Assembly (NCBI GenBank): GCA_947258435.1
Contig: CAMYID010000011.1
Location: 10,833 to 74,832 of the forward strand
Length of the DNA stretch: 64,000 nt
From: an uncultured Alphaproteobacteria bacterium
GTDB taxonomy: Bacteria > Pseudomonadota > Alphaproteobacteria > UBA11222
Reading direction: 5' to 3'
Shown here: positions 1,567 to 50,824 of the stretch, one piece after another
How the letters are laid out: each line of letters begins with the position of its first letter
Numbering within the stretch: the stretch's first letter is position 1
Made by a program: the position numbers and the translations under genes
Notes under the pieces: model-generated
Seen by the model: the letters and a program-made list of their open reading frames with translations, nothing else
Database searches by the model: none
Told to the model about the DNA's origin: nothing

Positions 1567-2382
1567 ATGAGTGACGGATCCCATGCAGCGCGGCGCGCAC
1601 GCGGCCTTGACGTACTGACCACACTGAGTGGGCGCGACGATGCCGAAGCGCAGGCCCAACGACTCGAAGATACCAATGGCGCGCTTGGTTCATTTGTCGT
1701 CGACTATGCGCTGGGCGATCTTTGGAGCCGACCAGGTCTGAGCCGGCGCGATCGCAGCTTTGTTGTGATTTCGGTGCTGGCCGCCCTTAACCAGACCAAT
1801 CAGTTGAAAATGCACGTACGCGGCGCCATCAACCATGGCATGACGCCCGAAGAAGTTCGCGAAGTCATGACTCATATGTGTGGCTATGCAGGGTTTCCGC
1901 GCGCCCTCGATGCGATGCGGGTGACCAATGAGGTCCTTGAGAAGATGGGCCATGCGCCCGCGGACGGAAAACTGCCACCTGCCGAACGGCTCAGTGATGC
2001 GGAGCGCTGGAAGCGCGGCGCCGAAGGGCTAAGCATCATCACCGGCCGGCCGATCCCCATCGAACGCCCCACCGATGACAGCAAGGGGGCGGTCGGGCTG
2101 GGCCCGCTCGGTGCCGCAGCGGTTGATTTCTGCTTTGGCGATATCTGGGCGCGTTCACAACTGCCCCGTCGCGATCGCAGCCTGCTTGTCGTATCGGTGC
2201 TCGCAGCGCTTGGCCGGCAGGATGAACTGGAAATCCATGTCCCCGCCGCCATCACGAATGGCGTGACGGTCGCCGAGCTTGAAGAGATGATCCTGATGTA
2301 TTCAGCCTATGCCGGTTTCCCCTTTGCGGTGGAGTGCCGCAATGTACTTGCGCGCCATCTCAAAGCGCAGGAAAACAGCTGA
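1567..2382 (+). CDS. Carboxymuconolactone decarboxylase (CMD/AhpD-like) family protein with two tandem CMD domains
   Basis: GGAGG RBS 8 nt upstream. Internal duplication is visible: GDLWSRPGLSRRDRSFVVISVLAALNQ...YAGFPRALDAM versus GDIWARSQLPRRDRSLLVVSVLAALGR...YAGFPFAVEC. Confidence 0.7.
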   Translation: MSDGSHAARRARGLDVLTTLSGRDDAEAQAQRLEDTNGALGSFVVDYALGDLWSRPGLSRRDRSFVVISVLAALNQTNQLKMHVRGAINHGMTPEEVREVMTHMCGYAGFPRALDAMRVTNEVLEKMGHAPADGKLPPAERLSDAERWKRGAEGLSIITGRPIPIERPTDDSKGAVGLGPLGAAAVDFCFGDIWARSQLPRRDRSLLVVSVLAALGRQDELEIHVPAAITNGVTVAELEEMILMYSAYAGFPFAVECRNVLARHLKAQENS

Positions 2383-2408
2383 CCCCAGACCGGTCAGGCG
2401 AATAAAAA

Positions 2409-2434
2409 GGGGCGACAACGCTGTCGCCCCCCCC
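2409..2434 (-). terminator. Rho-independent terminator for the minus-strand gene ending at 2462
   Basis: GC hairpin GGGGCGACA-ACG-CTGTCGCCCC followed, in the minus-strand direction, by TTTTTATT. It sits between convergent genes. Confidence 0.6.
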
Positions 2435-2461
2435 AATCTGCGCAACCGCGTGCAGCCCGGA

Positions 2462-3391
2462 TTATTCTCCGAACATGCCCTTGATATTGTCGAGTGACTT
2501 TTTCGCCTCATCACCTGCATCTTCAAGTTTCCGCATCGTGCCATCGGGCCCGTTCTGCAGCATTTCCTGCATCTGGCCTGCTTCGGCGGGCAGCTTGTCC
2601 TGCAAGGCTTTCTGCAGGTCCTGCGCAAGCTTGCCGCCATCGGCAGTTATGCCCTTCTGCATCAGTGCTGCAAACTCTCCTGCCTGATCGCCCAGCATAC
2701 TGACAAGTTCCGCGGGGTCGATATTGCCTGCCGCCTTGATGATTTCGGGCTTCAGCTCTTCAAGAATCTTGTCGACGAGTTCGGCGCCGGTAAGGCCTTC
2801 GCGGCCTTTGCCGAGATCACGCAGATGCAGATCCGGAAGCGGTACGGAGATTTTCTTGCCCGGAACCGTCGTCGTGCTGACATTCACCGAAGCGTCGCGG
2901 AAATAGAGATGATTGACCATGAGCTTCACGGTCTGCTCATCAGCGGTCGCACCGGCCTGGCTTTCTTCGGCCGGAGTCGCAACCCCGCTTTCGGCAAGAT
3001 AGCGATCGACATTCTGCTGCAGGGCGGCAATATTGCTGCCCTCACGGCCAAGCTCATACCAGATCACCGGGCCATTAATCTCGAATCTGTCGATCACGAC
3101 CTGTTCGGTGCTCAATTTGTCCGTATTCAATGCAAGCGCAATCCTGTCGAGCCGGAAAGTATTGTCGGCGGAAAATCCAGCCGGTGTTCCAATGACGAAT
3201 CCGTCGATTGCAGCCTTGCCAGCGGTGATATCCACTTCCACCGCATCGACTTCGACATCGGTCGCGGTGATATCCGATCCATAGCGTTCAATCGCGGCTT
3301 CGATAGCACTGCCAAGCTGTGTATAGCTGTAATACAGCACGGCACCCACCACGACGATCAATACAACCAAGACCCAAAGCAGCTTTTTCAT
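2462..3391 (-). CDS. Membrane-anchored hypothetical protein (single N-terminal TM helix, acidic/low-complexity C-terminus)
   Basis: Start taken at MKKLLWVLVVLIVVVGAVLYY (hydrophobic anchor). No recognisable catalytic motif. Confidence 0.45.
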   Translation of the reverse strand: MKKLLWVLVVLIVVVGAVLYYSYTQLGSAIEAAIERYGSDITATDVEVDAVEVDITAGKAAIDGFVIGTPAGFSADNTFRLDRIALALNTDKLSTEQVVIDRFEINGPVIWYELGREGSNIAALQQNVDRYLAESGVATPAEESQAGATADEQTVKLMVNHLYFRDASVNVSTTTVPGKKISVPLPDLHLRDLGKGREGLTGAELVDKILEELKPEIIKAAGNIDPAELVSMLGDQAGEFAALMQKGITADGGKLAQDLQKALQDKLPAEAGQMQEMLQNGPDGTMRKLEDAGDEAKKSLDNIKGMFGE

Positions 3392-3527
3392 CAAAATTCC
3401 TTCCTTAAACTGGTGCCATCGCCCCCATGGCGTCACCCATTAAAACAAATCCATGTTCTCAAAATATGGCAAGAATGCGGGGCGATCCGCCCCGCACCTG
3501 TTTTTTTGCTTCGGCAGCGCCTGTCGG

Positions 3528-4625
3528 CTATTCCGCAGCCTGGGCCAGTTCCATCAAAGGCGCGCCGGGCAATTTCTTGACCTCGGGCATTACCTCTTTT
3601 GCAAACAGGCGCATGCTTTTTTCTGCATCTTCGTAAGGCATGCCCGCATAGCTGAACACCGCGTTATAGGCACCCGAGCCTGTGCGCGATGTAAAATCGA
3701 CAATCCGTTTATAGCATTGCTCGGGCGTGCCCCAGACCTGAATGCTCATAAAGAACTCGATCATCGCATTGACGTTCTGGTTCGCCATATCCTGCATGGC
3801 GACGTAACTTTCATAGCCCTTCGTGTTCTTCAGATGGTCACCCTGCATCTCATAATGATCGACGACGGTCTGGTAATAGCCGCCGATATATTTCAGCGCC
3901 ATCTCCTCGGCACGGCCGGCATCCTCGTCACAATAGGTCCAGCCGCCCAGGATCGGCGCCGGGGCTTCCGTCCCGTTCACTTCCCGATAAATCGCGCGGT
4001 AATCGGTAAGTTCGCGTTCCACATGCTCCCAGGGCTTTTGCGGGATGATCAGAATCCCGACCCCGAGTCGCGCCATGATTTTTGACGATTCAGGGGATAC
4101 GGCGGCGGCATAGGTGCGCCCCTTGAAGCTCTTGAACGGACGTGGGCGGATCTCACGCCGCAGCTGCTTGACCAGTCGCCCGTCATATTCGCAAAAGCCG
4201 GTCTCAAGTCCCTCGAGAATCATTTCCGCGGATTCGGTGAAATATTCGCGGCTGTCATTCATGTCGCGGCCAAAACCGTCAAATTCCACCCGGCCAAGTC
4301 CGCGGCCGATCCCCAGGATCATCCGCCCGTTCGACATATTGTCGAGCATGGAAATCTCTTCCGCCACCCGTATCGGATCGTGCCAGGGCAGAACGATAAC
4401 CATCGAACCGAGCAGCAGCTTGTCGCTTTTCGCGGCGAAGTAACTCAGAAACTGAGTCACGTCGGGACACATGGTATAATCCGTAAAGTGGTGTTCCACA
4501 CTCCAGATCGACTGAAAACCAAGCTCTTCGGCCATCATCCCGAGCCGAAGCTCATTCTGATACACATATTGATCGGATTTCGACTGGTCGGTGCCCTGAA
4601 ACACCAATGCGAGGCCCACATCCAT
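3528..4625 (-). CDS. LLM-class (luciferase-like) flavin-dependent monooxygenase
   Basis: 365 aa, MDVGLALVFQG... with typical LLM TIM-barrel blocks (SIWSVEHHF, ISMLDNMSNGRMILGIGRG). Confidence 0.75.
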   Translation of the reverse strand: MDVGLALVFQGTDQSKSDQYVYQNELRLGMMAEELGFQSIWSVEHHFTDYTMCPDVTQFLSYFAAKSDKLLLGSMVIVLPWHDPIRVAEEISMLDNMSNGRMILGIGRGLGRVEFDGFGRDMNDSREYFTESAEMILEGLETGFCEYDGRLVKQLRREIRPRPFKSFKGRTYAAAVSPESSKIMARLGVGILIIPQKPWEHVERELTDYRAIYREVNGTEAPAPILGGWTYCDEDAGRAEEMALKYIGGYYQTVVDHYEMQGDHLKNTKGYESYVAMQDMANQNVNAMIEFFMSIQVWGTPEQCYKRIVDFTSRTGSGAYNAVFSYAGMPYEDAEKSMRLFAKEVMPEVKKLPGAPLMELAQAAE

Positions 4626-4815
4626 CTTGCTACTCCCTTCCCTTTTTTGGTTATGCGCGAAATTGGACCATAGGGTTGCGGCAATTGCCAGGGGTTTTGC
4701 CCGGTCAGACGAACTATGGAGGGCCCGAACGATTTCAGCCCGACGGGGACAGGCCGGGCTGATCGATCTGGTTTATTCTGTGTCCGTACAGGTCAGCGGG
4801 GTTTTGTCAGCCCCC

Positions 4816-6108
4816 TCACTCTGCCGCCCGGGTCGGGTCGTCGCGCACAATGCTGATCCCCGAACCTGAGCGTTGCTCGGGCTCGGTCTGCGCTGCGCCG
4901 CCGCCCTCATCGGTGATCTGCCGACCAAGCGCGATGACATTGGGAATTTCCTCGTCAGTCAGCGCCTTCATGAATTGCTTGCGCGCCAAAGCCTTCTCGA
5001 TATAGGGGGCAAGCTCTTCATTCTTTTTCTTCTCCCGCTCCGCCTCGAACTCGCTGAACTCGGGTTTTACCTCGCGGGCGAACAGTTCCAGCGCCTCGCA
5101 AATATGTTCATGCCTGTTCTTGCCGCCCTGCTGTATGAAGGCGACCTGATCGACGCCGGCATCCTGGAAACCGCGCAGATGATTGCGCAACTGATCGGGT
5201 GTGCCGATACCACGCGCTTCACCTTCTTCGGGCAATGCACTGCGCGCCTGCTCGAAATTTTTCCAGATATCGGTCCGGCCGGGCTTATGCTCACCGAAAA
5301 TATAGTGATGGCCCAGCGCATAACCGAAGAATCGGAAGCCGTCCATGCCCCGGTCTTTTGCAACCTGTGCGTCCGGATGGACCGAAAACCCAGTCACCAT
5401 CGCGATATTGGCATTCACCGTATGGCCGATCGGCACGCATTCTTCAGACTTGATAATGGCATAGTAGTCATCCACCCATTTTTTTGCTTCCTCGGGGTCG
5501 ACGAAGGCAAAAGTCAGCGCGCCAATACCGCACCGTGCGGCAAGTTTGATTGTTTCGCGGTTGGAACAGGCAACCCAGATCGGCGGATGCGGACGCTGTA
5601 CCGGCTTGGGCACGATGTTGCGCGTCGGCATCTCAAAAAATTCGCCCTTGAAGCCGGGATAAGGGTCCATGACCATCATATTGGCGCATTGTTCGACGCA
5701 TTCGCGCCAGGCAGCCCGCTTGCGCGCCACATCGACATTATAGCCGCCAAGCTCAAGCAATGCGGAGGATTCGCCGGTTCCCCACTCAACCCGGCCATTT
5801 GACACCAGGTCAAGCGTGGCAATCCGTTCGGCCACCCGCGCGGGATGATTATAGCCGGGCGGCATCAGGACAATGCCATGCCCCAACCGGATATTTTTCG
5901 TCCGCTGCGAACAGGCGGCAAGAAACACCTCAGGTGCGGAAGAATGTGAATATTCCTCCAGAAAATGATGCTCGACCTCCCAGGCGAATTCGATCCCCAG
6001 ATTGTCGGCAAGCTCCACCTGCTTAAGCGCGTCCTGAAACAGTTGCTGTTCAAGTCCCTCCGTCCACGGACGCGGTAACTGATGCTCATAGAAAGTTCCG
6101 AACTTCAT
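4816..6108 (-). CDS. LLM-class flavin-dependent oxidoreductase (430 aa)
   Basis: MKFGTFYEHQLPRP...AWEVEHHF...IATLDLVSNGRVEWGTGES, a luciferase-like monooxygenase signature. Confidence 0.75.
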   Translation of the reverse strand: MKFGTFYEHQLPRPWTEGLEQQLFQDALKQVELADNLGIEFAWEVEHHFLEEYSHSSAPEVFLAACSQRTKNIRLGHGIVLMPPGYNHPARVAERIATLDLVSNGRVEWGTGESSALLELGGYNVDVARKRAAWRECVEQCANMMVMDPYPGFKGEFFEMPTRNIVPKPVQRPHPPIWVACSNRETIKLAARCGIGALTFAFVDPEEAKKWVDDYYAIIKSEECVPIGHTVNANIAMVTGFSVHPDAQVAKDRGMDGFRFFGYALGHHYIFGEHKPGRTDIWKNFEQARSALPEEGEARGIGTPDQLRNHLRGFQDAGVDQVAFIQQGGKNRHEHICEALELFAREVKPEFSEFEAEREKKKNEELAPYIEKALARKQFMKALTDEEIPNVIALGRQITDEGGGAAQTEPEQRSGSGISIVRDDPTRAAE

Positions 6109-6239
6109 CGCTTAATCGCTCCCTGTTACGTCATCATGCCCATTCACAATAGAAAGCGAGAGTTGTTTCCCCCGTCATATCAGATCTTCAAATTTGCGGC
6201 ACCGGCACCCGGCACCCGGCTCAGCGGGCCGGGCCGCCG

Positions 6240-7106
6240 CTATTTTCCCTGAAGCGCCTTGCTTGCGACAAGTTTGTCAAAACCATCAAGGATTGCGTTA
6301 TACCGCATCTCGACAACCGCACGCATATTGGGATCGGTGAAGATATAGGGCCAGTCGCCTTCCACCCCTTCGCGCACAAGTTCGCCTACAATGCGCGGAT
6401 CGAGACCGCCCTTGATGCCCTGAAGCATCATTTCCTGACGTGCGGCATCTGAATCGTTTTTCGGCGCAACCGGCTCAATCGGACCGCCGAACCGGTCCGG
6501 CCGGTTTCGGCCCGCATTGGTGATGTTTGTATTTACAAAACCGGGACACAGGACCGATGCGCTGATATTGGTTTTTTCAAGCTCCCCTCGCAGCACATCG
6601 CTGATGCCAACGGCTGCAAACTTTGTCGCTGTATAAGGGCCGCCTGTCGCACCCGCCGCGATAATTCCGGCCATGGAGGCAGTGGTCACAAAATGCCCGC
6701 CTTCGCCATGCGCCTTGATATGCGGCAAAAAAGCCTGAATGGCATAAACGATTGCCATCTGGTTGACGCCAACAACCCAGTCCCAATCGGATTGGGGAAT
6801 CTTTTCGATCGGCCCGCCGGCACCAATCCCGGCATTGTTGCAAACGATGTGAATCTTGCCAAACTCATCGAATGCCTTTTGCGCCGCCTCAAAAACCGTC
6901 TCGCGCATCGACACATCGCATAACACACCCGCAACGCGGACATTCGATTCGTCAGCCAGCGACGCAACGGCCTTATCAAGCGCCCCCTGCTCGATATCCG
7001 CGATCATGACATTCATGCCCTGGGCCGCGAATGCCTGGCCCATACCATAGCCAATGCCACTCGCACCGCCCGTTATGAAAGCGGTCTTTCCTGCCAGATC
7101 TTTCAT
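6240..7106 (-). CDS. SDR-family short-chain dehydrogenase/reductase
   Basis: TGGASGIG Rossmann motif, NNAG motif, and catalytic Y-x3-K (YTATK). Confidence 0.85.
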   Translation of the reverse strand: MKDLAGKTAFITGGASGIGYGMGQAFAAQGMNVMIADIEQGALDKAVASLADESNVRVAGVLCDVSMRETVFEAAQKAFDEFGKIHIVCNNAGIGAGGPIEKIPQSDWDWVVGVNQMAIVYAIQAFLPHIKAHGEGGHFVTTASMAGIIAAGATGGPYTATKFAAVGISDVLRGELEKTNISASVLCPGFVNTNITNAGRNRPDRFGGPIEPVAPKNDSDAARQEMMLQGIKGGLDPRIVGELVREGVEGDWPYIFTDPNMRAVVEMRYNAILDGFDKLVASKALQGK

Positions 7107-7112
7107 CCGGAA

Positions 7113-8147
7113 CTACTCCGCCGCCATCCGGCGCTGCTCCAGCGCCTCAAATTCAGCAAACAGCTTTTCGCCCTCAGGCGCAGCCAAAATCTGCTCACGC
7201 AGTGTATCGCGGGTCTGTTCGCGGTTCGCTTCAAAAGCGGTGGTCACATGCCATTCGATCATCGGCGCCCAGAGCGGATCGAACAGATCCTTGCCCGCGA
7301 TGGTGCCGCCATCGACGGTCTTGATCGTCAGCCCACGGAACTCGGACAACATCACCCTAAGGCTCGCCACATGGATATTCTCATCCTGGCGAATGCGGTC
7401 GATCAGCTCTGCCGCGAGTTTCACCCCTTCCGGGTTATTCTGAAAGGTATCGGTTGCACTGACGACGCTTTCATAGAAGCGGAAAGTCGCCTCCGCACGC
7501 ACCTCGATCATTGTGAGATTCATCAGCAGCAGAAGATATTCTTCATGCGCCTGCGGGATCTGCGGCATCAACCGCCCCTGTTCGGGCCGGCCGATCCGTT
7601 CGGGCGGCTCAGGCAGAGGGAACGCCCCTTCCCCGAACAATGCATCGCGCACGGCGAACCACATTTCATCATGCGCCCCGATATCGGTTGCCGGGTTACC
7701 CCCTTCATCCCAGCCATGCGCCACAAGCAGCCCCTTATTGAGATGCCCCAGACACATCTCACTGATATCCTCGACAATGATCTCCTGGAAATCCGGTGCC
7801 GGAAAATCAGCAAGCAGCTTGCCACGCCCTTCGATAATGCCGGCAATCGTCAGTGAGTTCCACAATGTCTGCGCGAAGCCATTACGCAAGAGAAATCGCT
7901 GCTGGTCCGTACTCGGATAATTTCCCATCTTGAGCAAATCCGGGCTGCAATCGATAAGCGGCAGACCCTTGCGCTCCACCTCCGCCTGCCAGGCATGGAT
8001 AGCGGGCCAGCGGTGGAGCGAACGGGGCGGCGTATAAACGCCCTCGGCATCAAAACCGCCATGTAGTTTATGCCCCGCGGCCTCATGAAACTGCGCAAAG
8101 GGATGACTGGCCATGAGTTCATCGGAGGAATAGACAAGCTTTAACAT
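7113..8147 (-). CDS. Uncharacterised 344-aa protein, paralog A of a tandem pair. Family not recognised. Conserved His and acidic residues suggest a metalloenzyme.
   Basis: Shares about 45% identity with the next gene over its full length. Blocks include LHGGFDA, GIIEGRGK, VEDISE..GHLNKGL, DIGAHDEMWF, EVRAE and RIRQDE.IHV. Confidence 0.5.
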   Translation of the reverse strand: MLKLVYSSDELMASHPFAQFHEAAGHKLHGGFDAEGVYTPPRSLHRWPAIHAWQAEVERKGLPLIDCSPDLLKMGNYPSTDQQRFLLRNGFAQTLWNSLTIAGIIEGRGKLLADFPAPDFQEIIVEDISEMCLGHLNKGLLVAHGWDEGGNPATDIGAHDEMWFAVRDALFGEGAFPLPEPPERIGRPEQGRLMPQIPQAHEEYLLLLMNLTMIEVRAEATFRFYESVVSATDTFQNNPEGVKLAAELIDRIRQDENIHVASLRVMLSEFRGLTIKTVDGGTIAGKDLFDPLWAPMIEWHVTTAFEANREQTRDTLREQILAAPEGEKLFAEFEALEQRRMAAE

Positions 8148-8216
8148 CTTACAGTCCTGCGGTTTACAAATCGAAGTTGGTGTTTCTGTCTGAACGGCTT
8201 TGGAGAGCGTCGGCGG

Positions 8217-9254
8217 CTATTCTGCCGCTGCGGCAAGCGGTGTCTCCAGCCGATCGAATTCAGCAATCAGCTTGTCTGAATCCGGCAGTTTTTCAAGCTG
8301 TCTTACGATGCTGCCGCGGGTTTGTTCGCGCGCCGTGTCATAGACCGTAGTCGAATGATAGCCGACCATCCCCTCCCATACGGGATCAAGCAGATCGCTG
8401 CCTTTGATCGTGCCGCCATCGACTGTTTTGAAGGTCAGGGTCCGCATCTCGGACAGCACCGCCTGCAAATAGCCGACATGGATCGCTTCATCCTGCCGGA
8501 TGCGTTCGACCATCTGTGCGGCCTGTTCGGCAACATCGCGGCGGTCGGTGAACATTTCAGGGTCGCGGAACAGCTCACAGCAGAAGGAGAACATTTTCTC
8601 TGCACGCACCTCGACCATCAGGATATTCATATAGATGAGCAGAAATTCCTCGAGCGTCTGCGGGATCTGCGGGAACAGCCGGCCCATCTCGGGCCGCCCG
8701 ATTTCCTCAGGTGCGGTCGGTACGGCATAGGCATCCTTGCCGAACAAAAGATCGCGGACGACAAACCACATCTCATCATGGGCACCGATATCACTGCCAT
8801 CCATGCCGCCTTCATCACGCCCATGTGCATGATGCAACCCCTTGTTCAGATGCCCGATAGCGAGTTCGGAGATATCCTCAACAAAGAATTCCTGAAAGTC
8901 GGGGCCGACAACATCGCTGAAAACCTTGCCGCGGCCTTCGATAATTCCGGTCAGTGTCAGCGAATCCCACAGGGTCTTGCCAAGACCATGCCGCAGCAGA
9001 AACTTCTGCTGCGCATGATTGGGGTAATTATCCCGTTTCAGCAGTTTCTGGCTGGCATCGATCAGCTTGCCGCCCCTGGCTTCAAGATTTTCCGCCCACT
9101 GCGCGACCGCAGGACCGCGATGCAGCATGCGCGGGGAGATGTAATTGCCCGCCGCGTCGAATCCGCCATGCAGCCGCTTGCCCATCACCTCATGGGGTTG
9201 CGCATAATCATGTTCGGCCATGATCTCGTCATAGCTGTAAACATTCTTTGCCAT
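8217..9254 (-). CDS. Uncharacterised 346-aa protein, paralog B of the tandem pair
   Basis: Start taken at MAKNVYSYDE, with an in-frame upstream extension possible. Same conserved blocks as 7113-8147. Confidence 0.5.
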   Translation of the reverse strand: MAKNVYSYDEIMAEHDYAQPHEVMGKRLHGGFDAAGNYISPRMLHRGPAVAQWAENLEARGGKLIDASQKLLKRDNYPNHAQQKFLLRHGLGKTLWDSLTLTGIIEGRGKVFSDVVGPDFQEFFVEDISELAIGHLNKGLHHAHGRDEGGMDGSDIGAHDEMWFVVRDLLFGKDAYAVPTAPEEIGRPEMGRLFPQIPQTLEEFLLIYMNILMVEVRAEKMFSFCCELFRDPEMFTDRRDVAEQAAQMVERIRQDEAIHVGYLQAVLSEMRTLTFKTVDGGTIKGSDLLDPVWEGMVGYHSTTVYDTAREQTRGSIVRQLEKLPDSDKLIAEFDRLETPLAAAAE

Positions 9255-9277
9255 TGTCAGCCTTTCCACCCTTGGTT

Positions 9278-9988
9278 CTACGGATCTTCCACCTTTATGA
9301 CGCCATCCGCATCGGGCCCGTTGACGATCCGCGCCTTGCCGTCGCAATCGGGCGCCGCCAACGCACGGACGACAAATTGCGTTACATTCCGCAGATAATG
9401 TTCCTTATCTTCCTGACTGCCATTGACCGGCATGGTGACCACGCTTGTGATCATCAGGATGACGCGCCCGATAATTTCCGGATCATAATCAGCCCAGGCC
9501 ATGCCGCTGCGCTGCGCATTACGGACTGCGACCGCCCAGGCCTTTGCCCATTCGTCGACAATCGATTCCGAGGAACCGCCATCTTCGCGGCTCATCAGCT
9601 GATGCCCCGCCCAGGCGGCGCGCAAAACACCGGGATTGGATTCGGAATATTCCATTGCGACTTTCAGCGCCGCGTAAACCCGCTCCGCACCATTGCGGCA
9701 TTTCGCAAGTTCAGGCTGCACCAGCGCCTGGATTTCTCCATGGGTCTGCGACACAAATGCCTGAAAACATTCCCGTTTATCTGCAAAATAGAGATAAAAA
9801 GTGCCATAGCCGACCCCTGCCTCGCGGGAGATATCCTGCGGACGGGTTTCATGATAGCCATGTTCGACAAACAGCTTGCGCGCGGCTGTCATCAAGCGTT
9901 CGCGGCTTTCCGCCTTTCGCCGCTCGCGCTTTGACAAGCCGTCTTTCGCCGCTGATTCGACGTGATTTATGTCATTGGTAACAGACAT
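9278..9988 (-). CDS. TetR/AcrR-family transcriptional regulator
   Basis: N-terminal HTH RERLMTAARKLFVEHGYHETRPQDISREAGVGYGTFYLYFADKRECF. AAGGAG RBS upstream of MSVTND. The upstream MTICQ start would swallow the RBS. Confidence 0.8.
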   Translation of the reverse strand: MSVTNDINHVESAAKDGLSKRERRKAESRERLMTAARKLFVEHGYHETRPQDISREAGVGYGTFYLYFADKRECFQAFVSQTHGEIQALVQPELAKCRNGAERVYAALKVAMEYSESNPGVLRAAWAGHQLMSREDGGSSESIVDEWAKAWAVAVRNAQRSGMAWADYDPEIIGRVILMITSVVTMPVNGSQEDKEHYLRNVTQFVVRALAAPDCDGKARIVNGPDADGVIKVEDP

Positions 9989-10010
9989 GTCAGTTATTCT
10001 CCTTTGAGCC

Positions 10011-10023
10011 TGACATATTGTCA
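10011..10023. promoter_or_regulatory. Inverted repeat TGACA-TAT-TGTCA in the tetR promoter region, a candidate TetR operator (autoregulation)
   Basis: Perfect 5-bp arms with a 3-bp spacer, 23-35 bp upstream of the tetR start. On the coding strand the sequence reads TTGACAATATGTCA, overlapping a TTGACA -35-like hexamer. Confidence 0.35.
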
Positions 10024-10278
10024 ATAAAATTACGCGCCACGCGCCGCATTTCCCCCAAACGCATCGTCACGACTCATGGGTGAGTATAGTTAGAATTTAT
10101 GGGAATGGCTGCCCGCAATTGGCGCAGGCAGTGGCGCGCCCCTGTTCATTGCACGGTTATCGCACCGGCAAGGGAGCGTGGAAAATCAGCGCAGGTGGGC
10201 AGCAGACCAGATTAACCGTAGACTGATTTTTCGGAGCTTCAGGCCGAATTTCCGGATTGTCCGCCCGGCGGCTGGCAA

Positions 10279-10530
10279 TCACCCGCCTTTGATCGCAGGC
10301 AAAAAATAGACTTCACTGTTATCTGCAATCGCCTCGAGAAACGGGTCGGAGAAAATTTCGCCATCGATTGCAATCGCAATGCCGTCGGATTGAAGCTCGG
10401 CGCCCAGACCCGGAAACATCTCGTCAAGTGCCCCGATAAGTTTGCGCACATTGACCGCATCCACGTCGAAATGCGTTTGGCCGCCAGCGAACTGGCGGCC
10501 AAGCTCATTGCTCAGAACGACCTGAGCCAT
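10279..10530 (-). CDS. MoaD/ThiS-family ubiquitin-like small sulfur-carrier-type protein (83 aa) with C-terminal Gly-Gly
   Basis: ...SEVYFLPAIKGG at the C-terminus. Size and beta-grasp-like pattern match MoaD. Lies immediately downstream of the Mo-subunit gene, in the same operon. Confidence 0.6.
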   Translation of the reverse strand: MAQVVLSNELGRQFAGGQTHFDVDAVNVRKLIGALDEMFPGLGAELQSDGIAIAIDGEIFSDPFLEAIADNSEVYFLPAIKGG

Positions 10531-10542
10531 ATTTTCTACCTC

Positions 10543-12804
10543 TTAGCTGTCAAGCGCGGAGACGATCGCCGGCGGCGACAGCGGCAGATCCGTCATCCGT
10601 TTGCCGATTGCGTGTGACACTGCATTGGCGGTGGCACCAAGTGGCGGCACGATCGGCACCTCGCCCACACCACGCACACCAAACGGATGTGCGGGGTTCG
10701 GCACCTCGACAATGACCGTATCGATCATCGGCAGATCGGATGCGACAGGCATCCGGTAATCGAGGAAGCCCGGATTCTGCAACCGGCCATCTTCGCCATA
10801 GATATACTCTTCATTGAGAGCCCAGCCGACGCCCTGGGCAACACCGCCCTGCATCTGACCTTCCACATAGCCCGGATGAATGGCCTTGCCCGCGTCCTGC
10901 ACCGCAGTGTAGCGCAGCACCGTCACATGGCCGGTATCGGGATCAACCTCCACATCGCAGATATGGGTGCCAAAACCCGCACCTGCACCGCGTGCGTTGA
11001 TCGCGGCCTTGCCATTGATCGGCCCGCCCGTGCGGCCCGCCTTCGCGGCGATATCGGCAAGCGAAAGCGGCTTGAAGTCACCCGCATTGGCGCTGGCCGG
11101 GCGCGCGAAGCCGTCTTCCCAGACGACTGCGTCCACGCCGATATCCCAGGTCATGGCAGCACGTTCACGCAATTGCTGCACAACATCCTCAGCCGCCTGA
11201 ATAATCGCCATGCCGGTCGCAAAAGTCACGCGGCTGCCGCCGGTCACATCGTTGTAGCCGATACTGGCAGTGTCACCGACAATGATCTTGACCTTGTTAT
11301 AATCGACACCCAGCACTTCGGCCGCCATCATGGCCAGCGAGGCTCGCGAACCGCCAATATCGGGATTGCCGGAGATCACACAGACCGTGCCGTCTTCCGC
11401 CACATTGACCGTCGCGCTCGACTGCATGCCGATATTGAACCAGAAGCCCGAGGCCACACCGCGCCCCTGATTGGGACCAAGCGGGATATTATAGTTCGGA
11501 TGCGCCTTTGCGGCCTCCAGCGTTTCGATATAGCCGATGCTCTTGAACTTCGGCCCATAGGGGGCCTGGGTCCCTTCTTTTGCGGCGTTTTTGAGCCGCA
11601 GATCGATCGGATCCATCCCCAGCTCCTGCGCCAGCTCGTCAATCGCGCTTTCAACCGCAAATGACGCCATGGGCGCACCCGGCGCCCGGTAAGACGCACT
11701 GAGGGGCCGGTTGACGACCACATCGTAGCCGACCGTCTTGACATTCTCGAGCGCATAGGGCGCAAAAGCCGTCATGCAGCCCGGCGCCACCGGCGAACCG
11801 GGATAGGCACCTGCCTGATATTTCAGCTCCGCCTCGGCACCCTGGATCTTGCCATCCCTGGTCGCACCGATTTTGACACGCATGGCTGTCCCCGAGGTCG
11901 GGCCGGTTGCCCGGAATACTTCGTCGCGCGACATGACCATCCGCACCGGACGGTGGGACTTGCGCGACAGGAGTGCGGCAACAGGTTCAAGATAGATCGT
12001 GGTCTTGCCCCCAAAACCACCGCCGATTTCCGCCGGGGTGACACGCACCTGCGCCAGCTCCAGATCGAGCAGCTTGGCTGTGAAGGTCCGGACCATGAAC
12101 TGGCCCTGGCTGGAACACCAGATGCGGCATTCGTCGTTTTCGGTCCATTCGACAACCGCCGCATGCGGCTCGATATAGCCCTGATGAACCGGTTGTGTCG
12201 TATAGTTACGCTCGATCACTACGTCGGACTTTTCATAGCCCGCATCCGGGTCACCGAAACCCATCTGCACCCGCATCACCACATTGGACGGCTTTTCCGG
12301 CTTCGGCTCGACGCCGGCGGTAAAAATCGTATCGTGCAGAACCGGCGCATCGGGTTTCATCGATTCTTCCACGTCGATCACATGTGGCAGAACCTCATAC
12401 TCTACCTCGATCAGGCTCAGCGCCTCATTGGCAACCGCATCGCTGATCGCAGCGACAGCGGCGACCGGATGCCCGTCATACAACACCTTGTCATGTGCCA
12501 TGATATTGTTGGACAGATAGCGGAAATTAACCGCACCTTCACCGGCCTGCGCCATCTCGGACGGCATTTCAGGCATATCCGCACCGGTAACGATCGCCTT
12601 CACGCCCGGCAGCGCGGCCGCCTTGTCCGTGTTGATCGAGACGATTTTTGCATGCGGGTGCGGGCTGCGGAGAATTTTTCCCGTCAGCATCCCGGGCAAG
12701 TTCAGGTCCGCACCGAAATTGGCGCGGCCGGTAACCTTGTCGACCCCATCGGGACGGATCTGACGGGTGCCGACCCACTTCAGTTCTTTATCTTCATATC
12801 CCAT
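10543..12804 (-). CDS. Xanthine-dehydrogenase-family molybdopterin-binding large subunit (CoxL-like), not a true CO dehydrogenase
   Basis: 753 aa. Aldehyde oxidase / XDH Mo-binding blocks are present. The active-site loop reads SYRAPG rather than the AYRCSFR of form-I CODH. Confidence 0.8.
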   Translation of the reverse strand: MGYEDKELKWVGTRQIRPDGVDKVTGRANFGADLNLPGMLTGKILRSPHPHAKIVSINTDKAAALPGVKAIVTGADMPEMPSEMAQAGEGAVNFRYLSNNIMAHDKVLYDGHPVAAVAAISDAVANEALSLIEVEYEVLPHVIDVEESMKPDAPVLHDTIFTAGVEPKPEKPSNVVMRVQMGFGDPDAGYEKSDVVIERNYTTQPVHQGYIEPHAAVVEWTENDECRIWCSSQGQFMVRTFTAKLLDLELAQVRVTPAEIGGGFGGKTTIYLEPVAALLSRKSHRPVRMVMSRDEVFRATGPTSGTAMRVKIGATRDGKIQGAEAELKYQAGAYPGSPVAPGCMTAFAPYALENVKTVGYDVVVNRPLSASYRAPGAPMASFAVESAIDELAQELGMDPIDLRLKNAAKEGTQAPYGPKFKSIGYIETLEAAKAHPNYNIPLGPNQGRGVASGFWFNIGMQSSATVNVAEDGTVCVISGNPDIGGSRASLAMMAAEVLGVDYNKVKIIVGDTASIGYNDVTGGSRVTFATGMAIIQAAEDVVQQLRERAAMTWDIGVDAVVWEDGFARPASANAGDFKPLSLADIAAKAGRTGGPINGKAAINARGAGAGFGTHICDVEVDPDTGHVTVLRYTAVQDAGKAIHPGYVEGQMQGGVAQGVGWALNEEYIYGEDGRLQNPGFLDYRMPVASDLPMIDTVIVEVPNPAHPFGVRGVGEVPIVPPLGATANAVSHAIGKRMTDLPLSPPAIVSALDS

Positions 12805-12805
12805 T

Positions 12806-13282
12806 TTACGATCCTCTCATTTCTGCGGCGACGTCGAGCACCGAACGAATGATCTTGTCATAGCCTGTGCAGCGGCACAGATTGCCCGCAAGCCAGTAAC
12901 GGACTTCGGTTTCCGTCGGATCCGGATTGCGCTCAAGCAGGTTTTTCGCGGCGACCAGAAAGCCTGGAGTGCAGAAGCCGCACTGCAATGCCGCCTCCTC
13001 CAGGAATTTTTGCTGTAGCGGATGCAGCTCATCACCTTCGGCCATACCTTCGATCGTCTCGATCTTCGCGCCGTCCAGTTCAGCACCCAGCGCCAGGCAG
13101 GAACAAACAAGCCGGCCATCAAGGATCACGCTGCACGCCCCGCAGTCACCCGAAGAGCAACCTTCCTTTGTACCCGTCAGGTTCAGCTCATCGCGCAATA
13201 CATCCAGCATAGTCTGTTGCGGGTCGCAAAGATATTCGACCTCTTCACCATTGACTGTCGCAGTTACATGAAATTTAGCCAT
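12806..13282 (-). CDS. (2Fe-2S)-binding small subunit (CoxS-like)
   Basis: CSSGDCGACS and CGFCTPG ... CRCTGY cysteine motifs. Confidence 0.85.
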   Translation of the reverse strand: MAKFHVTATVNGEEVEYLCDPQQTMLDVLRDELNLTGTKEGCSSGDCGACSVILDGRLVCSCLALGAELDGAKIETIEGMAEGDELHPLQQKFLEEAALQCGFCTPGFLVAAKNLLERNPDPTETEVRYWLAGNLCRCTGYDKIIRSVLDVAAEMRGS

Positions 13283-14154
13283 TAGTTACTCCCTGCCCGC
13301 TCAAGCGCAATTTTTGCCGCACGCTGGGCAAGCACCCCGGCGACCTTTTTGCGATATTCAATTGTGCCGCGTTTATCATCAATCGGATTGCACGCGGCGC
13401 TGGCCGCAGCAGCCAGTTTTGTCAGCGCGGCCTCATCAACCTTCGTCCCGACCAGCGCAGCACCGGCATCCTTGACAAGCAGCACGGTCGGCGCAACCGC
13501 CCCCAACGCCACCCGCGCGGCCGTGCAGACGCCCTGATCGTCAAGTGTCAGGTTGACCCCCGCACCAACGATCGCGATATCCATTTCCGTCCGCGGGATC
13601 ATGCGCAAATAGGCATCGCCGGAATGCGCCGGGCGCGGCGGCAGCTTGATCGCCACGACGAATTCACCCTTCGCCAGCGAGGTTTTCCCCGGAGCCGTCG
13701 GAATTTCTTCTACCGGCACTTCGCGGCGGCCATTTGGCCCGGCCACGATACAAACGGCGCCAGCGGCCACAATGCCGGGCACGCTATCGGCGGCAGGCGA
13801 GGCATTGCAAAGATTGCCCCCCAATGACGCGCGTCCCTGTACCTGCGTCGAACCGATCAGATCCATCGCCTCGACCACACCGGGCCATGTTTTGTGCAGG
13901 GCGTCATTTTCGCTGATCGCCTGTCCGCATACCGCAGCGCCGATCAGAAAGCTGCCATCGCTTTCCTGCCTGATAGTATTCAGTTCGTCGATACGCTTGA
14001 TATCGACAACCAGGTCCGGTTTGACGATGCCGGCACGCAACTGCACCAGTAAATCGGTTCCCCCCGCCAGCACGCGGACATTGCCGGCGGCATTCGCCAG
14101 CACACCCACCGCCTCGTCGACCGACGCCGGAGCTTCAAATTGAAATCCGCTCAT
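13282..14154 (-). CDS. FAD-binding subunit of a molybdenum hydroxylase (CoxM-like)
   Basis: Start at MSGFQFEAPASVDEAV. Contains VLAGGTDL FAD-binding motif. Gene order M-S-L with 1-nt start/stop overlaps. Confidence 0.75.
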   Translation of the reverse strand: MSGFQFEAPASVDEAVGVLANAAGNVRVLAGGTDLLVQLRAGIVKPDLVVDIKRIDELNTIRQESDGSFLIGAAVCGQAISENDALHKTWPGVVEAMDLIGSTQVQGRASLGGNLCNASPAADSVPGIVAAGAVCIVAGPNGRREVPVEEIPTAPGKTSLAKGEFVVAIKLPPRPAHSGDAYLRMIPRTEMDIAIVGAGVNLTLDDQGVCTAARVALGAVAPTVLLVKDAGAALVGTKVDEAALTKLAAAASAACNPIDDKRGTIEYRKKVAGVLAQRAAKIALERAGSN

Positions 14155-14345
14155 CTTACTCCCTTGCTCTTCCTCTCGCCGGGCCAGGTTCGGCATGCAT
14201 CGGGTTAACTCAACTGTCCCCGCAACGCGCCTCCTGATGCCGCCATCAGATTATTATTTGCAGACGTGAATTTCCGCATGGCCTGACCAGCCTGCACGAA
14301 TCCACGCATACTTTGATCAATAACTTATCAGAGATTTGCACTTAA

Positions 14346-14396
14346 CGATAACCGTAATAGGACGACGATAACCGTAATTTCCGACGATACCGTAAT
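14346..14396. repeat. Three direct repeats of CGATAACCGTAAT spaced about 19-20 bp apart, in the promoter region of the hydroxylase operon
   Basis: aaCGATAACCGTAATagg acgaCGATAACCGTAATttc cgaCGATACCGTAATggg, read directly from sequence. Confidence 0.6.
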
Positions 14397-14569
14397 GGGC
14401 AGACAGCCGTCGCAGGTATCCCCTTGCCCCTATTTCACTCCGTCAAGCCCAGCCTCGGATCCGAGTATGACGGAAACCGGCGCTGCTGTTCAAGCGCCGA
14501 TACGCCGTTGGCGGTCCGCAAAACAAAGATACAATAAAGATCAGGCACGAATCTGCCGAACATTGACCG

Positions 14570-14613
14570 CCGCTCAATGGGCGCTCAATGGCCGCACAAT
14601 AGGCGCACAATGC
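14570..14613. repeat. Four tandem 11-bp repeats, consensus GCGCWCAATRG
   Basis: ccgctcaatgg gcgctcaatgg ccgcacaatag gcgcacaatgc. Sits in the divergent intergenic region between the NUDIX gene and the hydroxylase operon. Confidence 0.6.
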
Positions 14614-14691
14614 AGACCATCGGGCACGGACACTGGACATCGCCACTGCAACCGGTGCAATCTGCGGCACGCGGGGAGGACGAGAACACAA

Positions 14692-15423
14692 ATGTTACAA
14701 CAAAAAAGCGATAAGCTATTACAACAAAAGAGCGAAAAGCCGCGCCGGGCCGTACGCCCCAAGGATGCGGCGACGCTTATCATCGTAAGGCGCGACCGGT
14801 CGGTACCGGAAATCCTCATGGGACGGCGCAGTGACGGCCATGACTTTCTGCCAAACAAGTTTGTTTTTCCAGGCGGGCGCGTGGACCGTGGCGACAATAT
14901 GGTGAAGCCCCACAGCGGCCTGCGCCCGGAAGTCGAAGCGCGCCTTGTCAGGGGATGCAATTCGACGAAGGCACGGGCGCTCGGTATGGCGGCGGTGCGC
15001 GAAACCTTCGAGGAAACAGGCCTTATCGTCGGGCGGCATATCGGCCGACCAATGGCAACACGTTCAGCCGTCTGGTCGACCTTTTCCCAAAGCGGGGTCG
15101 CGCCGGCACTGGATATAATGAACTATATCGGCCGCGCCATTACCCCGCCTTTCCGGCATAAACGATTTGATGCGCGCTTCTTTATGACAGACGCCGAACA
15201 TATCGCCGGCGATCTGCATGATATCTCTGATGCCTCGGGCGAGTTGCTGGAAATCCACTGGCTGCCTGTCAGCGAAGCAAAGCTGCTCGAATTACAGGGG
15301 ATTACCCTGCTGATGCTCGACGAGGTCGAGCGGCGGCTCAACGTGACTGAAAGAAAAGCGTCCGAGCTTCCCGTTCCTTTCTATTATTTCAGGCACGGCA
15401 AGCGTATCGCCGAGGCGCATTAA
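14692..15423 (+). CDS. NUDIX hydrolase
   Basis: NUDIX box GGRVDRGDNMVKPHSGLRPEVEARLVRGCNSTKARALGMAAVRETFEETGL (GX5EX7REUXEEXGU). Start taken at MLQQKS; the longer upstream ORF is low-complexity. Confidence 0.7.
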   Translation: MLQQKSDKLLQQKSEKPRRAVRPKDAATLIIVRRDRSVPEILMGRRSDGHDFLPNKFVFPGGRVDRGDNMVKPHSGLRPEVEARLVRGCNSTKARALGMAAVRETFEETGLIVGRHIGRPMATRSAVWSTFSQSGVAPALDIMNYIGRAITPPFRHKRFDARFFMTDAEHIAGDLHDISDASGELLEIHWLPVSEAKLLELQGITLLMLDEVERRLNVTERKASELPVPFYYFRHGKRIAEAH

Positions 15424-15467
15424 TGTTGCCACAGGGCAATTGAAATGTTGCCAGGGGGCAATTGAAT
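15423..15467. repeat. Two tandem 22-bp direct repeats, each containing the inverted repeat TTGCC-N4-GGCAA
   Basis: atgttgccacagggcaattgaa / atgttgccagggggcaattgaat, immediately after the NUDIX stop codon and about 190 bp upstream of rpmG. Confidence 0.5.
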
Positions 15468-15585
15468 TTGTGACGCAGCCACAGCCAGATCGCCAAGGAT
15501 AACCCGCAGAAGCGCACGCCAGATGCAGCGGCAGGGGGCGGTGACGTAAAATGCCGGCCCGTTACTGCAGAAAGGCGAAGTTTAC

Positions 15586-29979: not shown

Positions 29980-30001
29980 CCGCCATCGGATGACAAGTGG
30001 C

Positions 30002-31327
30002 TCAGGCCATCGATTTCTGGCGGTCTTTCTGTGCGAACAGCTCACGAAATACCGGATAGATGTCGGCACGGTTTGCAATGCGTTTCATGGCAAAGTTGCG
30101 CCAATCCGCATTGACTTCCTGATAAGAACGCCACAACGCAGCACCGGAGCGGGAATCCTGGAAAATGTCATACTCACGCTCATCCAGGATTTCGATATAG
30201 GCGTAATATTGCAGCAGCGGCATGATGTCGCTTTGCAACAGCGCATTGCACCGTTCGGAATCGCCGGAAAAGTTTTCCCCGTCCGATGCCTGCGCGGCAT
30301 AGATATTCCATTCACTGGTGGGATAACGCTCGGAAATGATGCGCGACATTTCATCGAGCGCGGTGCTGACGACCGTGCCGCCCGTCTCCGCGCTGTAGAA
30401 GAATGTTTGTTCATCCACTTCCTCGGCGTGATGAGTGTGCCGAATAAATACAATGTCTGTTTTCTCGTAACGTCGCTCGAGAAACAGATGCAGCAGCATG
30501 AAAAAGCGTTTTGCGAGATCTTTTTCGCGCTTGCCCATCGAACCTGAAACGTCCATCAGGCAGAACATCACCGCGCGGCTGTTGGACGAGGGCTGATTTT
30601 CAAAACGCCGGTAGCGAATATCCACCGGATCGATAAAGGGCACAGCCCGGATCCGGCGACGAATACGCTCCAGCTCTTCACGCAGGCGGATTGCCTCGGC
30701 ATCCGCCCCTTCGCTTGTTTCAGCCCGCGCCTCAACCTCGGCAAGCTGCGTTTCAAGCGCCCTTATCTTCTCCGATGACGGCCGGCCAAGCGCAATCCGC
30801 CTGCCATAGGCATTCCGCATCGTGCGAATAACGCTGAGATTACTATGGTTGCCCGATGCCGAGTGCCCTGCGCGCTGGCGCTTGAAGGTATTCACTTCGC
30901 GCAAGGAGGTCTTGACCAGATCAGGCAGTTCCAGATCCTCGAAAAAAAGATCGAGGAATTCCTCGCGCGACAGGGCAAAACGAAATGCATCCTCACCCTC
31001 GCCGCCATCGGACCCTTCTTTGCCGCCTTTGCCGCCACCGCCCGATTTCGGCTTTTCCAACTCATCGCCGGGCACGAACTCCCGATTGCCGGTGAAGACG
31101 CGCGACCGGTCACCACCCGTTGAAGAATGGCGGATGCGTGGCTCTTCTATTCCCTTGGTGGGAATGGTGACGACCTCACCATTCCCGATATCTGAAATGT
31201 TCCGGTCCTGAATGGATTTGTTCACCTCTTCCTTGATACGCGCCCTCGCTCGCCTCAGGAACCGTTGCCGGTTGCCCAGACTCTTGTCCTTCGGGTTTAT
31301 GCGCCGGTCAATAAAGTGGTGATGCAT
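30002..31327 (-). CDS. yeaH: YeaH/YhbH family protein (DUF444, vWA-like)
   Basis: MHHHFIDRRINPKDKSLGNRQRFLRRARARIKEEV matches the YeaH N-terminus. Gly-rich acidic linker and C-terminal vWA-like region. Confidence 0.8.
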   Translation of the reverse strand: MHHHFIDRRINPKDKSLGNRQRFLRRARARIKEEVNKSIQDRNISDIGNGEVVTIPTKGIEEPRIRHSSTGGDRSRVFTGNREFVPGDELEKPKSGGGGKGGKEGSDGGEGEDAFRFALSREEFLDLFFEDLELPDLVKTSLREVNTFKRQRAGHSASGNHSNLSVIRTMRNAYGRRIALGRPSSEKIRALETQLAEVEARAETSEGADAEAIRLREELERIRRRIRAVPFIDPVDIRYRRFENQPSSNSRAVMFCLMDVSGSMGKREKDLAKRFFMLLHLFLERRYEKTDIVFIRHTHHAEEVDEQTFFYSAETGGTVVSTALDEMSRIISERYPTSEWNIYAAQASDGENFSGDSERCNALLQSDIMPLLQYYAYIEILDEREYDIFQDSRSGAALWRSYQEVNADWRNFAMKRIANRADIYPVFRELFAQKDRQKSMA

Positions 31328-31354
31328 GATTTTTCTCCGAAACTCCCGGTTACA

Positions 31355-50770: not shown

Positions 50771-50824
50771 TGTTCTTATCCTTCGTATCCAATTCCGAAC
50801 CGGTCCTGCCATCCGAGCGGACGC

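Follow-up and report, generated by a model that had tools for sequence, protein, structure and literature searches.

Ten consecutive genes on the minus strand of a 64,000-nt stretch from an uncultured alphaproteobacterium (contig CAMYID010000011.1; the whole stretch is referred to here as the window) raise the question of whether they encode one pathway or two. They specify a three-subunit molybdenum (Mo) hydroxylase with a ThiS/MoaD-like protein, a TetR-family regulator, two paralogous proteins (UnkA and UnkB, collectively Unk), a short-chain dehydrogenase/reductase (SDR) and two luciferase-like flavin monooxygenases (LLM1 and LLM2). The first-pass annotation had treated all ten as one pathway built around the Mo hydroxylase and acting on an N-heterocyclic or aromatic compound. 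Open reading frame (ORF) listing and Pfam/NCBIfam scans bear out the ten genes, their common strand and their domain content, including the placement of the two paralogs outside recognised families (no Pfam or NCBIfam match). Comparison of gene neighbourhoods, however, separates two juxtaposed, independent transcription units. Unit 1 is the Mo hydroxylase operon, while unit 2 places familiar enzyme classes around a previously unrecognised family with a predicted ferritin-like fold. On balance we lean towards a reading in which the units are separate and unit 2 is a repressor-controlled, O2-dependent oxidation cassette employing di-metal Unk enzymes.

Two transcription units and their control

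An Unk-anchored search gave 287 matches among species-representative genomes, and 80 loci were examined (locus counts by tblastn; denominators vary by feature). A TetR gene is found on the same strand, no more than 2.5 kb upstream of Unk, at 71/78 loci. SDR lies directly downstream of Unk at 61/75, and either SDR or an LLM occupies this position at 62/67. An LLM gene is present within 2.5 kb of Unk at 28 of 67 loci (LLM1 type at 21, LLM2 type at 8), and two Unk paralogs occur at 9/80. The conserved core of unit 2-type loci is TetR-Unk-SDR, with or without an LLM, and a search started from LLM1 instead of Unk recovered the same TetR-Unk-SDR-LLM1 array.

Genes for [2Fe-2S] (FeS) or flavin adenine dinucleotide (FAD) subunits adjoin the cassette at a single locus among the 80 (L001), which has the same ten-gene layout and is 85-99% identical to the window, indicating the same species. 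Nothing assigns the source organism to Sphingomonadales, the order in which neighbourhood comparisons had been suggested. In the closest other relatives (L002-L009 and L084; Unk 71-76% identical) a TetR-UnkA-UnkB-SDR-LLM2 cassette lies between flagellar/dksA genes and purM/purN, with no Mo enzyme near. Conversely, the FAD-FeS-Mo-ThiS genes were found in 3/3 independent contexts examined, in the same order and with the same spacing, between unrelated flanks. Because the cassette has FAD/FeS genes beside it only in same-species L001, and the Mo operon stands alone elsewhere, the two units are taken to be independent. In one 6.5-Mb genome (L086), a few kb separate the four-gene Mo operon from rod-binding/flgI/fliX/dksA genes, the ones beside the cassette in L084; this layout suggests that adjacency of the units in the window may stem from loss of intervening genes.

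The features of the region, all on the minus strand unless stated, are as follows.

13282-14154 (ORF open to 14196), minus: unit 1 gene 1, FAD-binding (CoxM/XdhB-like) subunit (Pfam)
12806-13282, minus: unit 1 gene 2, [2Fe-2S] subunit (Pfam)
10543-12804, minus: unit 1 gene 3, molybdopterin-binding catalytic subunit, 753 amino acids (aa) (Pfam)
10279-10530, minus: unit 1 gene 4, ThiS/MoaD-like ubiquitin-fold protein, 83 aa (Pfam)
9996-10278, minus: intergenic control region of unit 2 (promoter-like site and palindrome)
9278-9988 (ORF to 10024), minus: unit 2 gene 1, TetR-family regulator, ~236 aa (Pfam)
8217-9254, minus: unit 2 gene 2, UnkA, putative ferritin-like di-metal-carboxylate oxygenase (UnkB paralog, conserved residues)
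7113-8147, minus: unit 2 gene 3, UnkB, UnkA paralog with the same predicted fold and conserved residues
6240-7106, minus: unit 2 gene 4, classical SDR, probably NAD-dependent (Pfam and motifs)
4816-6108, minus: unit 2 gene 5, LLM1, 430-aa luciferase-like flavin monooxygenase (Pfam)
3528-4625, minus: unit 2 gene 6, LLM2, 365-aa LuxA-like flavin monooxygenase (Pfam, NCBIfam and PDB)
3476-3496, no strand assigned: GC-rich hairpin separating LLM2 from the next gene (stem of 9 pairs, of which 8 are G-C)

The short gaps originally described between these genes exist for some neighbours, but not between ThiS and TetR (254-290 nt from stop to start) or ahead of LLM1 (131 nt) and LLM2 (190 nt). The best sigma70-like site of positions 2300-14600 is on the minus strand just 5′ of the TetR start (10024->9996; TTGACA-17-GAGAAT, 10/12 positions matched), and its -35 hexamer is overlapped by a 13-bp palindrome, TGACAATATGTCA (10011-10023), of the form TGACA-N3-TGTCA. 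This form occurs once in the 64-kb window and is absent upstream of the Mo operon. It is found between -160 and +30 of the TetR start in 51/73 related loci, and 51 of its 52 occurrences in 1.2 Mb of locus DNA fall inside the 190-nt stretches around TetR starts, together 1.2% of that DNA. In several Rhizomicrobium-type loci the palindrome takes a variant form, TGACGG-N2-CCGTCA. From its position and recurrence, the palindrome is most likely a conserved putative operator of an autoregulated TetR operon. A second palindrome, TAACAGACATGTCAGTTA (9979-9996), spans the TetR start codon and could serve as another operator half-site or influence the initiation of translation.

The TetR protein matches Pfam TetR_N (1.1e-14, 54 bits), its likely start is the ATG at 9988, with AAAGGAG 5′ of it, and its weak best matches are lipid- or butyrolactone-binding regulators. 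Unit 2 probably ends at the terminator-like hairpin that follows LLM2 (3476-3496; the minus strand reads AAAAAAACAGG-TGCGGGGCGGATCGCCCCGCA-TTCTTGCCATATTTTG), which may terminate in both directions, having an A-run on one side and a T-rich stretch on the other. Beyond it, the two-domain CMD gene (1567-2382), described earlier as converging on the cluster, converges instead on a DUF748-like gene (2462-3436). Both the CMD/AhpD-like and the DUF748-like genes were considered as cluster members and rejected, being companions of the cassette only in L001.

The Unk family and its predicted fold

UnkA and UnkB are 56% identical over 337 aa, with the UnkA start placed at MAKNVYSY by alignment with homologues. 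The family comprises at least 1533 clusters at 90% identity, all labelled ‘hypothetical’, and a profile search gave 620 representatives at 50%. Unk had no match in Pfam or NCBIfam, nor in PDB by single-sequence or profile search. Ten distant members likewise had no Pfam match at E<=1, COQ7 and MiaE models included, and none of the window proteins matched Pfam COQ7 or MiaE at E<=0.01.

The AlphaFold2 model of UnkB is of high confidence (pLDDT 90.1, pTM 0.88) and contains the four-helix-bundle core of known ferritin-like members. Foldseek against PDB returned no significant match (best E 0.17), with UndA, PolF, HrmI and MiaE ranked at the top; many of the top neighbours act on isoprenoid or fatty chains, in a ranking that is itself non-significant. 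In 29 sequences extending down to 27% identity, H135, D147, H159, H259 and E269 (UnkB numbering) are invariant, H29, E106, H144, E148, E215 and D255 are conserved in >=90%, and E256 is usual (<90%). Both window paralogs keep all of the conserved residues, which the model places on core helices 93-114, 133-149, 199-229 and 239-271. At the level of sequence, E106, E215 and E256-x-x-H259 fit the classical di-iron pattern and are candidate ligands.

On this evidence Unk is a putative new family of the ferritin-like di-metal-carboxylate superfamily, very probably comprising O2-activating enzymes, with a metal centre that is probably di-iron. Its identity to MiaE, cyanobacterial aldehyde-deformylating oxygenase (ADO), R2lox, CADD, UndA and HrmI is just 9-13%. 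From these ferritin-like and heme-oxygenase-like di-iron oxygenases Unk is distinguished by its length (~345 aa), a conserved 90-residue N-terminal extension (HGG...G.Y.PR...W), H-x-x-D-E in place of E-x-x-H on helix 2 and the extra invariant residues H135 and H159.

A sister subfamily from metagenomes (L091-L170), ~35% identical to the window proteins, has different company. The next gene on the same strand encodes an ABC1/UbiB-like atypical kinase (PF03109) at all 46 loci with enough flank (46/46; median gap ~60 nt), and TetR, SDR or LLM neighbours were never found at loci of this subfamily. Proteins of the UbiB/COQ8 type are linked to the handling of prenyl-quinones and lipids. Twelve of these loci have an AlgH-like gene upstream. 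A ‘327-aa downstream family’ that seemed to accompany the sister subfamily was discarded as an out-of-frame artefact overlapping the ABC1 gene.

A large unnamed family that had neither a Pfam model nor an annotation thereby gains a predicted fold and candidate ligand residues. Di-iron oxygenases and heme-oxygenase-like oxidases have recently been a source of much new chemistry, and new oxygenase chemistry is a realistic outcome here as well. The partners of the two subfamilies (TetR, SDR and LLM for one, a UbiB-like kinase for the other) and the conserved operator allow experiments to be designed directly, and cultivable hosts of the cassette exist (Parvibaculum indicum, P. sedimenti and Tepidicaulis marinus). 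The bacteria concerned are known for degradation of hydrocarbons and surfactants, and the branch tied to flavin monooxygenases could add a route of lipid or hydrocarbon oxidation.

Possible roles of unit 2 and competing explanations

The remaining enzymes of unit 2 belong to familiar classes. The SDR gene directly abuts or overlaps the Unk gene, and its product (Pfam adh_short 6e-44, 150 bits) has TGGASGIG and YTATK motifs, with beta-2 ending in an Asp (MIADIE); as Asp after beta-2 indicates a preference for nicotinamide adenine dinucleotide (NAD), the oxidative direction is suggested. Both LLMs exceed the Pfam Bac_luciferase cut-off of 27.9 bits (LLM1 1.6e-48, 166 bits; LLM2 6e-57, 194 bits) and keep the catalytic EHHF motif, and they are distant paralogs (25% identical). 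LLM1 is encoded by the third gene after Unk-SDR and shows 73-87% identity to its counterparts in Parvibaculum, Rhizomicrobium and related loci. LLM2 is the type that accompanies the cassette in L002-L009 and L084; it can be aligned along its whole length with LuxA (1brl_A from Vibrio, 3e-34; 8cbb_A from Enhygromyxa, 3e-33). LuxA is a long-chain aldehyde monooxygenase. LLM2 differs from the LuxA system in falling below the NCBIfam luciferase-alpha equivalog cut-off (145 vs 600 bits) and in having no luxB or luxCDE partner genes among the window ORFs. Dependence of the LLMs on F420 was considered and rejected, with no NCBIfam F420 family reaching its cut-off.

The conservation of LLM1 is unusually strong for an accessory monooxygenase: across lineages (L010-L077) in which it is 73-87% identical, Unk is 52-60%, SDR 44-52% and TetR 32-45% identical (LLM1 of L065, 69%). 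The C-terminal 80 residues of LLM1 form a charged extension of a kind that LuxA lacks. The four oxygenase-type products of unit 2 all end in -AAE, namely LLM2 (AQAAE, 3528-3536), LLM1 (TRAAE, 4816-4824), UnkB (RMAAE, 7113-7121) and UnkA (AAAAE, 8217-8225), an ending found in none of the other 54 window ORFs of >=100 aa. In related loci (L001-L080) Unk ends in -AAE, -KAA, -RAA or -VAA, LLM1 in -AAE, -SAD, -GAD or -SGD and LLM2 in -AAE, with variable preceding residues, and the SDR and the Unk sister subfamily have no tail of this type. The -AAE tail could be a docking peptide or a degron.

For unit 2 we infer metal content, catalytic roles, order of steps and class of substrate as follows. TetR would bind TGACA-N3-TGTCA over its own promoter until the substrate, or a small molecule related to it, causes its release. 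Unk, through a di-iron (or Mn/Fe) centre, would activate O2 and hydroxylate an unactivated carbon of a lipophilic, alkyl- or isoprenoid-like substrate, and the NAD-type SDR would oxidise the resulting alcohol to a ketone or aldehyde. The LLMs, dependent on reduced flavin mononucleotide (FMNH2), would then add oxygen at the carbonyl, either in a LuxA-type conversion of aldehyde to acid or in a Baeyer-Villiger-type conversion of ketone to ester, with reduced flavin supplied by a reductase encoded elsewhere. A lipophilic substrate is favoured because of the structural neighbours of Unk, the likeness of LLM2 to LuxA, the UbiB-like gene of the sister subfamily and the TetR matches; for the N-heterocyclic or aromatic substrate proposed initially there is no evidence, structural and neighbourhood hints pointing to lipid-like compounds.

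By analogy, unit 2 may work along the lines of camphor oxidation and of the sub-terminal alkane routes. The cam pathway, with CamR, comprises a hydroxylase, a dehydrogenase and a luciferase-like Baeyer-Villiger monooxygenase under a TetR-type repressor, so that the oxygenase-dehydrogenase-LLM gene order of unit 2 under TetR would mirror its hydroxylation, alcohol oxidation and flavin-dependent oxygen insertion. The parallel is imperfect: the first oxygenase of unit 2 is predicted to be ferritin-like instead of a P450, no hydrolase for a lactone or ester is present, and the camphor diketocamphane monooxygenases are not among the PDB matches of LLM2 at E<=1e-5. An alpha/beta hydrolase of the window (50825-51691) was examined as the wanted esterase and rejected, not being homologous to the hydrolase adjoining Unk-SDR in L089. 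Its 288-aa gene lies directly upstream of that for a 457-aa third LLM (49439-50812; the pair spans 49439-51691, minus strand), which is weakly related to LLM1 and was not accepted as a member of the system.

Several observations weigh against this reading, touching either the proposed chemistry or the separateness of the units. The second Unk helix carries H144-x-x-D147-E148 instead of the canonical E-x-x-H. Many loci consist only of TetR-Unk-SDR, so the LLM step is not universal, and no di-iron reductase or ferredoxin, flavin reductase, esterase or transporter was found in the cassette or among the window ORFs scanned, leaving the proposed pathway incomplete as encoded. Literature searches found no publication describing the Unk family or the cassette. 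No convincing terminator was found 3′ of the ThiS-like gene, and read-through from unit 1 into unit 2 is therefore possible. Finally, a different, orphan CoxL-like Mo gene is located within 7 kb upstream of TetR in 43/57 Parvibaculaceae, Rhodobiaceae and Rhizomicrobium loci; since the cassette thus has a gene of the xanthine oxidase family beside it in two lineages, Mo enzyme and cassette may be functionally linked.

The orphan CoxL-like protein (770-780 aa) is 28-31% identical to the window Mo subunit and non-orthologous, its closest relatives being CoxL (8uem) and an archaeal glyceraldehyde dehydrogenase model, and its gene has no FeS or FAD genes nearby. The distance to TetR is sometimes ~130 nt, with other genes inserted in some loci. 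The conserved block 5′ of TetR in these loci (from L010-L083, L089, L090, L171 and L172) contains glpK (a glycerol kinase equivalog), a class II aldolase gene and the orphan CoxL-like gene, in some cases with a GlcD-like FAD oxidase gene as well. This glpK-aldolase-CoxL-like block has the look of a distinct unit for aldehydes or sugars that synteny has preserved.

If all ten genes formed one catabolic pathway, the Mo hydroxylase would act first on an N-heterocycle or aromatic compound, and the diiron proteins, SDR and LLMs would then process the ring. Co-orientation of the genes, the lack of a strong terminator between ThiS and TetR and the identical layout in L001 are in its favour, as is the adjacency of a Mo enzyme to the cassette having arisen or been kept in two lineages. 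We nevertheless regard it as unlikely. L001, being the same species, is not an independent observation, the next relatives have no Mo enzyme nearby, and the four-gene Mo operon stands alone in all three independent genomes. The Mo gene of Parvibaculaceae is the distant, partnerless CoxL-like gene that travels with glpK, GlcD-like and class II aldolase genes. In addition, the operator palindrome does not precede the Mo operon, and there is no amidase, ring-cleavage dioxygenase or other typical N-heterocycle gene. In agreement with the initial annotation, no matching characterised pathway was found. The searches also gave no close homologue of assigned substrate. Separating the units also corrects an annotation trap, in that the adjoining Mo hydroxylase is unrelated to the cassette and belongs to an operon conserved separately, with an unexplained MoaD-like partner of its own.

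An equally doubtful alternative makes Unk a functional analogue of COQ7 acting on a prenylated quinone or membrane isoprenoid lipid, with the TetR-fold protein perhaps also presenting lipid in the manner of COQ9 and the UbiB-like protein corresponding to COQ8, so that the system would modify or turn over a cofactor or lipid and not catabolise a growth substrate. COQ9 has a TetR-like fold and binds COQ7, and the COQ7/COQ8/COQ9 module likewise combines a di-iron-type hydroxylase fold with the kinds of protein that accompany Unk, a TetR-fold protein in the window subfamily and an ABC1/UbiB-like one in the sister clade. This idea draws on the ABC1/UbiB-like gene following every sister-subfamily Unk with enough flank and on the TetR gene immediately preceding Unk at most window-type loci. 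It also draws on the predicted ferritin-like fold with MiaE as best match, MiaE being an isoprenoid-chain hydroxylase related to COQ7. The cassette lies, moreover, among housekeeping genes, apparently inherited vertically, with synteny across Parvibaculaceae and Micropepsaceae. Against it, Unk has no detectable sequence relation to COQ7 (no COQ7 or MiaE Pfam match even at E = 1), and the normal helix-turn-helix domain of TetR (TetR_N 1e-14) together with the conserved palindromic operator is in keeping with a genuine repressor. No ABC1 gene is present within 10 kb of the loci of the window subfamily or in the window, and ubiquinone biosynthesis offers no parallel to the SDR and LLM steps.

A broader version, in which the Unk family hydroxylates membrane or lipid substrates with no electron-transfer partner of its own, uses TetR-fold partners in Alphaproteobacteria and UbiB/ABC1 partners in the sister clade, parallels COQ7-COQ9-COQ8 on a different substrate and is docked with the LLMs into one complex by the A-A-(E/D) tails of Unk, LLM1 and LLM2, is put forward as speculation and seems to us improbable. 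Least probable of all is an aldehyde-centred unit 2 for detoxification or conversion of fatty or lipid-peroxidation aldehydes, in which the SDR makes a long-chain aldehyde, or an ADO-like, deformylating (not hydroxylating) Unk and LuxA-like LLMs consume one: the full-length resemblance of LLM2 to LuxA, an alkanal monooxygenase, and the EHHF motif of both LLMs speak for it, but LuxA-likeness does not fix the substrate (LLM2 again being far below the equivalog cut-off), Unk resembles ADO-like proteins at the level of fold only (~13% identity), no acyl-CoA or acyl-ACP reductase is encoded to supply the aldehyde, and the external reducing system that ADO needs is not encoded either.

The molybdenum hydroxylase operon and the rest of the window

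Judged by its domains, unit 1 is a complete xanthine-oxidase-family hydroxylase or oxidoreductase, all Pfam domains of the three subunits scoring above gathering thresholds in the three-subunit architecture of that family. The FAD subunit (FAD_binding_5 1.8e-40; CO_deh_flav_C 1.3e-25) probably starts at the ATG at 14154, as first annotated, because homologues are 286-289 aa long; AAGGGAG lies just 5′ of this codon. The [2Fe-2S] subunit (Fer2_2 2.5e-31; Fer2 7e-9) is 78-84% identical in L086-L088. The Mo subunit (Ald_Xan_dh_C, MoCoBD_1 and MoCoBD_2) carries the loop SASYRAPGAP, AEIGGGFGGKT and, near the C-terminus, FGVRGVGEVP with a catalytic-type Glu, the last aligning with FGAKGLGEI of 7dqx and FGAKEASEG of 1rm6. 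Its best PDB match is the alpha subunit of 4-hydroxybenzoyl-CoA reductase (1rm6_A; 3e-102, 347 bits), and its thousands of homologues at ~68-72% identity are named merely ‘xanthine dehydrogenase family protein’.

No NCBIfam equivalog cut-off tried was reached by the Mo subunit (4-hydroxybenzoyl-CoA reductase alpha 493/995, XdhA 445/780, CO dehydrogenase 301/991), and those for the 4-hydroxybenzoyl-CoA reductase beta (127 vs 405, in two stretches) and gamma (166 vs 258) subunits were also missed. The SASYRAPG loop and the TIGR02416 score (the 301 bits above) uphold the earlier view that the enzyme is not of the CO-dehydrogenase type. The FAD/2Fe-2S/Mo-pterin architecture is shared with HcrCAB of Thauera aromatica (1rm6), Kdh, quinoline oxidoreductase and CoxMSL. 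The window Mo subunit can be aligned with HcrA from end to end and keeps GGGFGGK and the C-terminal catalytic-type Glu (GVGEVP), but HcrA has GAMRGHG where the window protein has SYRAPG, and the CO-dehydrogenase loop (VAYRCSFR) differs too.

The one unusual trait of unit 1 among xanthine-oxidase-family hydroxylases is its constant MoaD/ThiS-like fourth gene. The product (Pfam ThiS PF02597, 29.6 bits vs cut-off 22.5) ends in ...AIKGG, and an 82-aa ThiS-like gene occupies the equivalent position 3′ of the Mo subunit in L086, L087 and L088; an 82-83-aa GG protein of this type is the invariable fourth gene of unit 1-type operons. To our knowledge, none of HcrCAB, Kdh, quinoline oxidoreductase and CoxMSL has such a gene, and a literature search found no paper on a xanthine-dehydrogenase-family enzyme paired with MoaD or ThiS. 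Across the same three unrelated genomes the enzyme subunits are 62-84% identical and ThiS 45-58%. Because the four genes recur in unrelated genomes with unrelated flanks, unit 1 is a self-contained operon, and many Alpha- and Gammaproteobacteria inherit it in this stand-alone, four-gene form. No Mo cofactor riboswitch was found 5′ of the operon, Rfam at E<=1 over 2300-15500 giving two chance matches to microRNA models. The reported absence of a flavin reductase and of an XdhC/CoxF-type protein also stood, among window ORFs of >=100 aa scanned against Pfam.

The remainder of the window is housekeeping in character and includes guaA, guaB, der, bamB, secDF, serS, tatC and prkA-DUF444-spoVR. The last of these (28348-33346, minus strand) is a PrkA - DUF444 (YeaH-like) - SpoVR-like trio, a stress-related, widely conserved module whose function is poorly understood. 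A repeat array (14345-14396) is situated between the gene for the FAD subunit and a divergent NUDIX gene (14395-15423, plus strand). In it ACGATAACCGTAAT occurs twice without mismatch, with a spacing of 20 nt (14345-14358 and 14365-14378; 0.03 matches expected in the window), and a degenerate third copy adjoins the start codon of the NUDIX gene. The ACGATAACCGTAAT array probably provides regulator-binding sites for the NUDIX gene or the Mo operon.

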